From Candidatus Aminicenantales bacterium (GTDB taxonomy: Bacteria; Acidobacteriota; Aminicenantia; Aminicenantales; UBA4085), in assembly GCA_049515535.1 (NCBI GenBank), contig JBEKTZ010000008.1:62001-104172 (forward strand): DNA of 42,172 nt, written 5' to 3'. This document shows, piece by piece, positions 3,157-39,747 of the stretch. The first letter of the stretch is position 1; each line of letters opens with the position of its first letter. The notes beneath the pieces are model-generated. The model was not told the origin of the DNA, did no database searches, and saw nothing but the letters and a program-made list of their open reading frames with translations. The position numbers were made by a program, and so were the translations under genes.

Positions 3157-3160
<4 letters not shown>

Positions 3161-4503
3161 GATGCGGCGCCTCTCATGCGCTGGATGACTTTGTCCTTGC
3201 CCAGCAGCTCCATGATTTCGAACAGGCCGGCCCCTTTCGTCTTTCCCGAGATCGCCACGCGGGTCGGGTGGATGATCTCCGCGGCCTTGAGCTTTCGCTC
3301 TTCGGCCAGCCCGCGGCACACGGCCTCGATGGCGTCGCGGCGGAAATCGGCGAGAGGCGCGAGCCGGGCGGCGAATTCCCGGAGGTTCTCGCGGTTTCCC
3401 GGCGGCTCGATAAACTTCTTCCAGGCGTCCTGCTCGATAGCAAAATCGTCCCGGAGGAAAGCGTCGGTGAGGCCGCCGAACTCCCGCAGCGTCTTGATCC
3501 GGACTTTGTAGAGATCGATGAGCCGGACGAGAAAATCGTCCGGGACCGAAGCCAGGTCGAAGCCGTCCCGCCGCAGCTGGGCCTTGAGGAGCGGAAGGAG
3601 TTCGTCCGCCGTCCTCTTCATGATGTATTCGCCGTTCATCCATTTGAGCTTCTGGATGTCGAACTTCGCCTGGACGTCGTTCATGGCCGGGATCTCGAAG
3701 ATTTTCGCCGCCTCGCCGAGCGGCAGGATCTCGACGCCGGTCAAGGGACGATCCTTCGCGGCGGAAGTGGACCCCCGGGCAGAGCCCGGGGCCCCGGCCG
3801 CCGTGGGCGGAGTCCAGCCGAGGAGGATGAGATAATTCGCCAGCGCTTCGGGCAGGAATCCCTCGTTCTTGTATTCCGCGACCGAGACGCCGCCGTGGCG
3901 CTTGGAGAGCTTCGCCCCGTCCGGCCCCAGGATGAGCGGCATGTGGCCGAAACGGGGCGGCGTCAAGCCGAGCGCTTCGTAAAAAAGGACTTGTTTCGGG
4001 GTGTTGGTGATATGGTCGTCGCCGCGGAGGATATGCGTGATGCCGAGGTCCGCGTCATCCACGACGCAGGAAAAATTATAGGCCGGCGATCCGTCGGATT
4101 TGATCAGGACCTGGTCCTTGAAGTTTTCGGTGGCGAACGTGATCCGTCCATGGATCATATCCTCGACGTCGATCGTCCGTCCGGGCTCGATCTTAAAAAT
4201 GACGGCCTCCCCTTCCTTATAGGCTTTTCCCGCGGCCAGCAGCTCTTCGGCCTTTTGCCGGTAGAGGTCGAATCGATCGCTCTGGAAAGTCAACTCGCCG
4301 TCCCAATCGAGTCCGAGCCACTTCAGGTCTTCCAGGATTTCCTCGAGAAATTTGACGTCTGAACGGACCCGGTCCGTGTCTTCGATCCGCAAGAGGAAGC
4401 GGCCGCCGGAGTGCCTGGCGACAAGCCAATTGAAGAGGGCCGTCCGGGCGCTGCCGAGATGCAGAAAACCGGTCGGGCTCGGGGCGAAACGGACGGTGAT
4501 CAT
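3157..4503 (-). CDS. gltX: Glutamate--tRNA ligase, with an in-frame repeat insertion
   Basis: [29 protein letters not shown] and KLSKR motifs plus a C-terminal anticodon-binding region. Start is MITVRF at 4503. Confidence 0.96.
3741..3806 (+). repeat. 66 bp palindromic repeat, copy A (in frame within gltX)
   Basis: TCAAGGGACGATCCTTCGCGGCGGAAGTGGACCCCCGGGCAGAGCCCGGGGCCCCGGCCGCCGTGG; near-identical to 29902-29967, 39682-39747 and 11210-11314 (minus strand). Confidence 0.95.
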
Positions 4504-11209: not shown

Positions 11210-11314
11210 CGACGGCGGCCGGGGCCCCGGGCTTTACCCGGGGGTCCACTTCCGCCGTACTCGCCCGTGGCTTATATCCACGGGCGAGTGGCGAGCCTAA
11301 GGCTCGTCCCTTGA
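11210..11314 (-). repeat. Palindromic repeat, copy D (105 bp, with an extra hairpin), overlapping the 3' end of hutU
   Basis: The minus strand reads TCAAGGGACGAGCCTT[AGGCTCGCCACTCGCCCGTGGATATAAGCCACGGGCGAGTA]CGGCGGAAGTGGACCCCCGGGTAAAGCCCGGGGCCCCGGCCGCCGTCG. Confidence 0.93.
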
Positions 11315-12967
11315 CATCGGAATTTTGATCTTCGCCCGGCGCGCGAATTCGATCGCGTCGGCATAGCCGGCGTCCGCGTGGCGGACTACACCCAGGCCCG
11401 GATCGACGGTCAAAACGCGCTCCAGCCGCTTCGCGGTCGACGCCCGCCCGTCGGCGACGATCACCATGCCGGCATGGATGGAAAGCCCGATGCCGACGCC
11501 GCCGCCGTGATGAACGGACACCCAGGACGCTCCGCTCACCGCGTTCAGCAGGGCGTTGAGAACGGGCCAATCGGCGATGGCGTCCGAGCCGTCCTTCATG
11601 CCTTCGGTTTCGCGGTTGGGCGAAGCCACCGACCCGGTATCGAGATGGTCCCGGCCGATGACGATCGGCGCGCTGATCACGCCTTTCTTGACCAATCGAT
11701 TGATAACGGCCCCGAACTTCGCCCGCTCGCCGTATCCCAGCCAACAAATACGGGCGGGCAGGCCTTGGAATTTAACCCGTTCCCTCGCCTTCCGGATCCA
11801 GCGCGCGAGGGCCGCGTCTTCAGGAAATTCCTTGAGCACGGCGTCGTCGGTGATATAGATGTCGCTGGGCTTTCCCGAGAGCGCGACCCAGCGAAAAGGC
11901 CCTTTACCCAGACAGAAAAGAGGCCGGATGTATTCCTGAACGAACCCGGGAATATCGAAGGCGTCCGCGACCCCGGCCTTGAGGGCCTGGCCGCGGATGT
12001 TGTTGCCGTAGTCGAACGCCCTGGCCCCTCGTTTTTTCAATTCGAGCATGGCCCGGACATGGACGGCCATGGATTCATAGGAGCGTCTGCTGTATTCGCG
12101 GGGATCATCGCGGCGGAGGCTGAGCGCCTCTTCATAAGAAAGGCCGTGCGGCACGTAACCATTGAGCTCATCGTGGGCCGAAGTCTGGTCGGTCAGGACG
12201 TCGGGGGTCAGGCCACGCCGGACGAATTCGGGCAGCACGTCGGCCGCGTTGCCGAGGAGCGCGATCGAAAGCGGTTCCCCCTTTTTCGCCGCGGCAAAGG
12301 CGAGATTGAGGGCCTCATCCAGGGTCTCGGCTATCGTATCGACATATCCCGTTTCGAGACGGCGCTGGATCCTGTGCCGATCGACCTCGACGACGATCGC
12401 CACACCTTCGTTCATCGTCACCGCCAGGGGTTGAGCGCCGCCCATCCCGCCGAGGCCCGCCGACAACGTGATCCGTCCCTTCAAGCTGCCGCCGAAGTGT
12501 CTCCTGGACACCTCGGCCAACGTTTCGAACGTGCCCTGAAGGATTCCCTGTGTCCCGATATAGATCCAGCTCCCGGCCGTCATCTGGCCGTACATCGTGA
12601 GGCCCAACGCTTCGAGACGCCGGAATTCATCCCAGGTCGCCCATTTAGGAACGATCAGGGCGTTGGCGATCAGGACGCGGGGGGCTTCGGAGTGGGTCCT
12701 GAAAACGGCCACGGGTTTCCCCGACTGGACGATCAGCGTTTCATCGTTTTCCAGCTTTTTCAGGCTGTCCACGATCGCCCAAAAGCATTCCCAGTTCCGG
12801 GCGGCTTTGCCCGTTCCACCGTAAACGATGAGCTCCTGGGGTTTTTCGGCGACGGCCGGGTCCAGGTTGTTCATCATCATGCGCAGCGCGCCTTCCTGGG
12901 ACCATCCCTTCGTCCGGAGCGCTGCCCCCCGGGGGGCCTTTAAAGGCTTATACGGACGCGCGACCAT
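11297..12967 (-). CDS. hutU: Urocanate hydratase
   Basis: [38 protein letters not shown] and [18 protein letters not shown] motifs; RBS AAGGAGG before ATG 12967. Confidence 0.98.
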
Positions 12968-13068
12968 GGCTGCCTCCTTGGAATTCTTGCGTTTGCCCGG
13001 TGGTGAATATATCATATCCCCCCGAGAAATAGCAAAATCAGAAGCCCCCGAAAGACCGAAAAAAGTAG

Positions 13069-29861: not shown

Positions 29862-29901
29862 GGCCGACTCCTTCATCAAAGCCCGAAGAGAGCCCGGACG
29901 A

Positions 29902-29967
29902 TCAAGGGACGAGCCTTCGCGGCAGAAGTGGACCCCCGGGCAACGCCCGGGGGCCCGGCTGCCGTCG
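29902..29967 (+). repeat. 66 bp palindromic repeat, copy B (intergenic)
   Basis: TCAAGGGACGAGCCTTCGCGGCAGAAGTGGACCCCCGGGCAACGCCCGGGGGCCCGGCTGCCGTCG. Confidence 0.95.
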
Positions 29968-39662: not shown

Positions 39663-39681
39663 GCCCGATTTCTTCGGACCA

Positions 39682-39747
39682 TCAAAGGACGAGCCTTCGC
39701 GGCAGAAGTGGACCCCCGAGCAAAGCCCGGGGCCCCGGCCGCCGTGG
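39682..39747 (+). repeat. 66 bp palindromic repeat, copy C (19 nt after the endonuclease stop)
   Basis: TCAAAGGACGAGCCTTCGCGGCAGAAGTGGACCCCCGAGCAAAGCCCGGGGCCCCGGCCGCCGTGG. Confidence 0.95.

Follow-up and report, generated by a model that had tools for sequence, protein, structure and literature searches.

An in-frame 63-bp palindromic repeat in gltX of an Aminicenantales bacterium and its likely relationship to IS200/IS605-type elements

In-frame palindromic inserts have been known from Rickettsia for 25 years. Rickettsia palindromic elements (RPEs) and their kin in Wolbachia and Methanocaldococcus lie in frame in housekeeping genes, typically in non-structured segments, and the accessible text of these reports gives no transposase for the CGTC/RPE type (PMC10969869, PMC3733652, PMC2996958). 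The concept of in-frame coding palindromes is not new. A separate class of small repeat, the PATEs of Haloquadratum walsbyi, consists of ends-only derivatives of IS200/IS605 elements (PMC3119063). The IS200/IS605 element IS608 inserts 3' of a short target with no gain or loss of DNA, has a fixed terminal tetranucleotide, and has its cut sites read by guide bases at the hairpin foot (PMC3201880). IS608 and ISDra2 prefer the lagging-strand template, and other IS families are also strand-biased (PMC5027513).

We analysed a repeat in a stretch of 42,172 nucleotides (the window) from a Candidatus Aminicenantales bacterium (assembly GCA_049515535.1, contig JBEKTZ010000008.1, positions 62,001 to 104,172), in which one copy interrupts gltX. 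Our results suggest that the repeat likely combines RPE-like consequences with a PATE-like mechanism.

The insertion in gltX

The features of the gltX locus are as follows.

3157–4503, minus strand: gltX, glutamate-tRNA ligase (GluRS) of 448 amino acids, matching profile TIGR00464
1463–3160, minus strand: glnS (GlnRS), the neighbour of gltX, with overlapping stop and start
3740–3802, minus strand: 63-bp short-form element, target-first on the gltX sense strand, delimited by orthologues, empty-allele contigs and family lengths
3803–3807, minus strand: host target pentamer CCCAC, 5' of the element, kept once in the empty allele
3740–3744, minus strand: fixed element end TTGAC, shared by 90 of the 112 complete copies and by the end of the genome's IS200 element
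3766–3798, minus strand: main imperfect hairpin, with an 8-bp GC stem, a T-rich loop (on the target-first strand) and a longer outer stem

Translation of gltX from 4503 to 3157 gave 448 amino acids with zero stops, which confirmed the original prediction that the repeat sits in frame, downstream of KLSKR and without a frameshift. The protein scored 431 bits against TIGR00464 (cut-off 290), retains both the HIGH (HLGS) and KMSKS (KLSKR) motifs intact and has its closest named relatives in Candidatus Aminicenantes. It is the sole GluRS gene found in the 94%-complete assembly, where tblastn otherwise returned only the adjacent glnS. Their overlapping stop and start couple gltX and glnS translationally. 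A Rickettsia gltX may also carry an RPE.

The insert comprises 21 codons (residues 234–254) between LGW and the conserved Glu, with a boundary that is ambiguous by 2 nt (GT). It had been predicted to measure 66 bp, or 22 codons, and to extend to position 3806; orthologues, empty-allele contigs and the commonest copy length instead give 63 nt and 21 codons at 3740–3802, and positions 3803–3806 are host target sequence. The expectation that GluRS normally has a short loop here held in all 29 gltX loci examined from relatives, in which LGW is followed by six residues before the acidic residue. The insert is absent from each of these 29 orthologues, whose loop is 21 residues shorter, and several of the same genomes bear the repeat elsewhere.

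Empty and filled gltX alleles both occur in metagenome contigs approximately 97% identical to this genome. A 311-nt contig from run X3, with 11 differences, passes directly from position 3739 to 3803; its shorter arm measures 118 nt, and two letters at the junction could belong to either side. A contig from run X5 has an identical junction, but its shorter arm is only 30 nt. Because these empty-allele contigs skip exactly 63 nt, we conclude that the insert is 63 nt long, subject to the 2-nt junction ambiguity, and that it carries no target duplication. Filled junctions were recovered from both flanks, reaching 25–30 nt into the element, in contigs of X1 (possibly the source run) and X2 (from another study), and from one flank only in X6 and X8. 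Typing of the site rests on contigs of these runs (X1, X2, X3, X5, X6 and X8); X4 and X11 were not typable. X5 (empty) and X6 (filled) share seven flanking differences from this genome, a pattern that suggests precise loss, repeated insertion or recombination; the depth of X6 is 4, and strains may be mixed.

We considered whether the repeat had been mis-joined into gltX, or whether this gltX is a pseudogene. No single metagenome contig spans the whole filled site, because unitigs break inside the repeat, and in an assembly that is 94% complete a second gltX could be missing. However, filled-junction contigs come from four studies (X1 and X2 from both sides, X6 and X8 from one side), so that the misassembly raised as a concern with the original prediction is not supported. 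The reading frame is intact in the only GluRS gene of the assembly, and 18 of the 21 listed differences between the filled X2 strain and this gltX are synonymous (19 further table rows lie outside this list). An artefact or a dead gene is therefore extremely unlikely, and the gltX insertion is real, young and in frame in an essential gene.

Relative to the common form of the element, the gltX copy has two base changes, which place Ser for Phe and Asp for Ala. An AlphaFold model of the GluRS, built on a 90-sequence alignment, has a pLDDT of 94.6 overall and of 66, 49 and 68 in three blocks spanning residues 231–260, and it superimposes on GluRS 8JPV with a TM score of 0.91 and an rmsd of 1.8 Å. 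The insert is modelled as a low-pLDDT coil with the core fold intact, although low pLDDT is also expected in columns without alignment depth. The insert is predicted to add a floppy loop and the enzyme to keep its function, though the loop belongs to what we take to be the stem-contact fold of GluRS, near the tRNA, where activity could be affected. We also observed that the zinc-binding insertion of the acceptor-binding region is absent from this GluRS and from Aminicenantes orthologues (approximately 426 amino acids), as in PDB 8JPV.

The repeat family and its junctions

A BLAST search of the genome with the repeat, as the original prediction had proposed, returned 130 clusters, of which 126 measure 39 nt or more and 112 are complete at both ends, and E-values down to 1e-54 show that this is a repeat family and not chance. 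Besides the gltX insertion, the window holds three copies.

11214–11315, plus strand: 102-bp long-form copy, consisting of 63 bp plus a 39-bp second-hairpin module
29901–29963, minus strand: 63-bp intergenic copy between a beta-barrel gene and wza
39681–39743, minus strand: 63-bp intergenic copy, 19 nt downstream of a TIM-barrel gene

The prediction that the repeat is intergenic elsewhere is mostly true within the window. The probable ATG start of wza at 29876 places the 29901–29963 copy outside that gene, and the wza frame is also open through the copy. The exception is the 102-bp copy, which covers the final 19 nt of the urocanase ORF (11297–13015, minus strand) and supplies its TAG stop. 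The loop of the second hairpin of this long copy is inverted relative to most copies.

Two lengths dominate the 112 complete copies: 63 nt (54 copies) and 102 nt (40 copies), the latter being the 63-mer with an additional 39-nt hairpin module. The remainder measure 129 nt (three copies), 165 nt (three), 141 nt (one) or a length not divisible by three (11). The two main forms are similarly uniform, with identities to the majority sequence of 95.7% for the 63-mer and 96.3% for the 102-mer. Three mosaic copies (G000:C10 21164–21293 and 26291–26419, and G000:C1 88854–88982) have two main hairpins flanking a variant second hairpin, resembling a BIME array. A second small palindromic element appears to be inserted in the main-hairpin loop and at several places in IS91-like genes (L240:340–393, near the end of L339, L223, and G000:C9 near 68014). 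It recalls the SMR-A repeats of Haloquadratum, which target PATE palindromes; the insertion of other small repeats into the palindrome is common to PATEs (PMC3119063) and to the repeat described here.

The junctions of the copies are asymmetric. The host pentamer 5' of the 112 copies is strongly conserved from positions −5 to −1 (T in 90, C in 102, G or C in 100, A in 92 and C in 110), giving the family target consensus TC[G/C]AC (TCSAC), and the 3' flank is near random from +1 to +8. The element ends in TTGAC in 90 of the 112 copies and in TTGAT in another 12, so that its end pentamer differs from the target pentamer. Among metagenome matches, 94 of 125 loci could be parsed at both ends and show the same target as the genome copies. 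In both the 63- and the 102-nt form the two ends of an element are unlike, leaving no terminal inverted repeats, and the elements are too short to encode a transposase. A MITE was rejected on the absence of both terminal inverted repeats and target duplication.

In a survey that scored only two to three candidates per genome, 18 of 251 genomes of the class and 2 of 401 genomes of the phylum contained the family, all belonging to one order. A viral collection gave 0 matches to the repeat and Rfam gave no significant match (best E 2.4). We found no description of this repeat family in the literature covered, which largely excludes subscription journals.

Coding insertions

Gene calls from our own hexamer gene model, which is unvalidated, assign 21 of the 112 complete copies to predicted genes. 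Of these, 20 preserve the frame, and 14 have 30 codons or more on both sides. An insertion into a gene keeps the frame open because the two main forms (63 and 102 nt) are multiples of three and five of the six frames of the short form are stop-free. We scanned 20 candidate host proteins, which include an aconitase/LeuC-type subunit, BamA, iPGM, aldehyde ferredoxin oxidoreductase, RibBA and an LptA-like protein. In each of the eight host genes compared with up to five relatives, at least one orthologue has a net 21 fewer residues (34 fewer for iPGM). The gap at the insert is a single clean block in six of these genes and is split or ambiguous in a methyltransferase and an M28 peptidase; more distant orthologues of the host proteins align poorly. 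Ten of the 94 parsed metagenome copies also lie in long open frames, including those of LeuRS and SecA. The in-frame metagenome copies observed are in LeuRS, SecA, a beta-CASP ribonuclease and a TolB-like protein (L289:1137–2417, L394, L326 and L377), and L319 has the same insertion in the LptA-like protein as this genome. The iPGM of this genome (L039, G000:C2:209882–211621) has its Pfam N-terminal domain at the C-terminus, a circular permutation, with the 102-bp element in the linker between the swapped halves.

Coding DNA accounts for 90% of weighted targets but, with these unvalidated gene calls, for only 19% of copies, and the density of copies in genes is 2.6% of that outside. Besides selection, targeting of intergenic DNA could contribute to this low density. 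By the same unvalidated calls, the frame used in gltX accounts for 7 of the 20 in-frame copies (2.0 expected, p = 0.003), and the short form is commoner in genes than the long form (17/59 versus 4/45, p = 0.014). The frame containing Cys, Leu and Phe was used three times (8.0 expected, p = 0.02), which is not significant after six tests.

The family had originally been described as an RPE-like, coding-compatible repeat in a different lineage. An in-frame palindrome in a housekeeping gene and a low-confidence loop bear this out, but the anatomy is more specific and matches IS200/IS605 derivatives (PATEs). As with RPEs, a palindromic repeat lies in frame in unrelated protein genes; RPE-1 measures approximately 150 bp and close to half of all RPE copies are genic, compared with 63 or 102 bp and 19% here (PMC10969869, PMC3733652, PMC2996958). 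Unlike RPEs, the repeat resides in a free-living uncultured anaerobe and uses several frames and both strands. The CGTC-tag architecture of RPE-4 and RPE-6 (PMC3733652) is not evident in it, the comparison with RPEs being by description only. The accessible account of CGTC-type RPEs names no known transposase (PMC3733652), whereas the repeat described here has IS200/IS605-like junctions and a polarity relative to the replication fork.

Movement of the repeat

Considering the conserved 5' target with a random 3' flank, the IS200-like TTGAC end and hairpin, and a replication-strand bias, we read the repeat as likely moving by the 'peel-and-paste' route of IS200/IS605 elements. It is probably a non-autonomous, PATE-like element of the IS200/IS605 type that depends on a Y1 HUH transposase supplied in trans, which would act on single-stranded DNA at the replication fork. 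TnpA would bind the T-looped hairpin on the target-first strand, cleave immediately 3' of both the host pentamer TC[G/C]AC and the TTGAC end of the element, and release the element as a single-strand circle. The circle would then integrate 3' of another target, in most cases on the lagging-strand template. Selection would likely remove most coding hits; those retained would contribute linkers rich in Ala, Gly, Pro and Ser to tolerant loops, such as the one between LGW and the conserved Glu of GluRS. An exact end-to-start (circle) junction was absent among the contig joints listed, and contigs drop rare forms.

The strand bias was measured in this one fragmented genome, with the origin inferred from dnaA and GC skew. 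The target-first strand of 83–86 of 110 copies, depending on which of four window sizes was used, is the G-rich strand (contig-flip permutation p = 0.0004–0.0008), compared with 1257 of 2362 genes (53%) and 1321 of 2547 free target-like sites (52%). On contig C5, dnaA is 10 kb away from the skew minimum, and the G-rich strand carries the rRNA and ribosomal-protein clusters; we therefore took this strand to be leading-strand sequence and infer that the strand bearing the target-first orientation is the lagging-strand template. On C5, copy orientation flips at the skew minimum (4/4 copies to the left, 4/6 to the right). For comparison, the orientation of 11 IS200 copies in the single contig of a relative, G026, switches at mid-genome. 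In the IS200 elements of G026 (L092–L095, L101 and L061), guide and target both differ from those of relatives with pairing kept, which amounts to natural guide retargeting.

The repeat shares with IS608 and ISDra2 a polarity of target, element and fixed end, the absence of duplication and an orientation on the lagging-strand template (PMC3201880, PMC5027513). It shares with local IS200 elements (L001, L057 and L058) a T-looped subterminal hairpin and the TTGAC end. IS200 elements in these genomes end in TTGAC, TTTAC, TTAAC or TTGAT and are preceded by the targets TTGAC, TTTAC, TGCAC or TTTAT. The one IS200 element of this genome has TTGAC at both boundaries and a tnpA with an internal TAA. 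The IS200 element at L001:1417–2026 (G000:C9), 610 bp long and with its tnpA broken, lies without target duplication inside what looks like a transposase gene of the IS1 type. The hairpin of the repeat is approximately 19/20 identical to the subterminal hairpin of relatives' IS200 (L057 and L053), a match with a BLAST E of 0.01–0.2 that is weak alone. Its right-end hairpin is unlike that of IS200, having a GAA loop beside TTGAC, and the 5' arm is missing from the short form.

A guide pairing rule, in which the first two pairings are from PMC3201880 and the fourth is inferred, fits all tested IS200 left ends. Applied to the repeat, the guide GGGG predicts the target C-C-x-C, and the 112 copies have C in 102, C in 37 or G in 63, and C in 110 at the three paired positions. 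No right-end guide fitting the pairing rule was found in the repeat, and no covariation of element variants with target bases was found at p < 0.02 across the 112 copies. The distance from left cut to stem is 11 nt in the repeat and 18–19 nt in IS200 and IS608. The repeat therefore differs from IS200/IS605 elements in having no tnpA or tnpB, a degenerate target, a shorter cut-to-hairpin spacing and no conforming right-end guide.

In most of the features compared, the repeat fits the definition of PATEs (PMC3119063). Both lack terminal inverted repeats and target duplication, are too short for a transposase, and have a short 5' target and a conserved terminal oligonucleotide (PMC3119063). The near-terminal palindromes of PATEs resemble IS200/IS605 ends (PMC3119063), as does the left hairpin of the repeat but not the right. 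One-hairpin short forms occur in both, of 52 bp in PATEs (PMC3119063) and 63 bp here. Unlike PATEs as described in the accessible text of PMC3119063, both main forms of the repeat are whole codons and mostly stop-free, with approximately one-fifth of copies in genes; in-frame insertions into coding sequence are not mentioned in that text. The repeat also differs in having no identified parent IS and no canonical right-end hairpin.

Our search for a mobilizing enzyme covered Y1 and Y2 transposases and TnpB. BLAST of the repeat found neither an autonomous parent nor a repeat-flanked transposase among 107 Y1/Y2 loci. BLASTP with 27 Y1 proteins found no Y1 transposase beside the 125 metagenome matches, of which only 80 loci have flanks, up to 1200 nt, and TnpB was found in 0 of 19 repeat-bearing genomes. 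IS200-type TnpA was not seen in the repeat-rich genomes G008, G010, G084, G143 and G252, and the repeat was not seen in G026 despite its 11 IS200 copies.

In the main rival reading, the repeat is of the REP/BIME (REPIN) type and owes its spread to a domesticated RAYT (TnpA-REP), for which a single hairpin sets the cuts on either side. The repeat resembles REP/BIME/REPIN families in its many copies, mostly intergenic location, modular doublets or arrays, and some in-frame intragenic copies (PMC3733652, PMC3333891). The two related hairpins of the long form, with T-rich loops on opposite strands, recall a REP–iREP doublet, and mosaic or tandem forms of 129–165 nt occur. TnpA-REP can cleave on the 5' or the 3' side of a single hairpin (PMC3333891); this would account for the 63-mer, with its one hairpin, matching the 102-mer in abundance and uniformity. 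RAYT-like Y1 genes are present in most relatives, and at L269:1484–1588 only 1 nt separates the end of a long-form copy from the start codon of a RAYT-like gene, and a degenerate half-copy in inverted orientation lies approximately 60 nt upstream. However, this is the only RAYT-like locus with an adjacent copy among the 107 loci, about what chance would give. None of the 107 transposase loci is repeat-flanked on both sides as a REPtron would be, a count that draft genomes limit, and RAYT-like genes also occur in repeat-free relatives. The 112 copies have no GTAG/GTGG or CGTC tag at the hairpin foot, and their precise fixed ends and 5-nt target are more in keeping with guides of the IS type than with the CT dinucleotide of TnpA-REP. 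We therefore regard movement by a RAYT as unlikely.

IS91-family (Y2) transposases are HUH enzymes that insert by a rolling-circle route beside a short target without duplication, and the repeat might be a non-autonomous element of this family. Y2 genes occur in 13 of 19 repeat-bearing genomes, and copies of the repeat lie at Y2 loci in four genomes. These copies sit inside coding sequence, after a normal TCCAC target, so the Y2 gene is a victim rather than being flanked. Moreover, Y2 had no match in the most repeat-rich relative, G014 (92% complete), nor in G027, which leaves a Y2 origin quite improbable. Diverged long-form copies occupy the same codon of broken IS91-like genes in genomes of two families (L223:1381–1483, L225:1752–1855, L224 and L235), which suggests that this IS was shared between lineages.

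Finally, the repeat might need no transposase, being a structured RNA or intron-like element or spreading by hairpin-driven template switching or gene conversion. The long form has three hairpins, and the inverted-loop copy suggests that template switching acts on the repeat. Against this, no Rfam family matched, copies in tandem gene pairs show no orientation bias to transcription (28 versus 23), and frame selection implies that the insert is translated rather than spliced out. Exact ends, a target preference and a one-sided junction need an enzyme, and we give a transposase-free origin little credence.

Returning to the IS200/IS605-type reading, we tentatively raise a stronger version, that this is a codon-sized, 63-nt, one-hairpin transposon still active in wild Aminicenantes. 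One guide would set both cuts, an IS200-type TnpA would act at the fork, and precise excision would make the 21-residue GluRS loop reversible. Precise loss fits the finding that empty X5 and filled X6 share their seven flanking differences while this genome, X8 and X2 are filled. If true, an active 63-nt transposon would be the first concrete mobilization mechanism for coding palindromes of the RPE kind. As the family is young, with exact ends, a defined target, empty and filled wild alleles and a replication-strand signature, the movement of coding palindromes becomes directly testable. The family also maps natural insertion-tolerant loops in essential proteins, in GluRS here and in LeuRS, SecA, BamA, the LptA-like protein and iPGM elsewhere.
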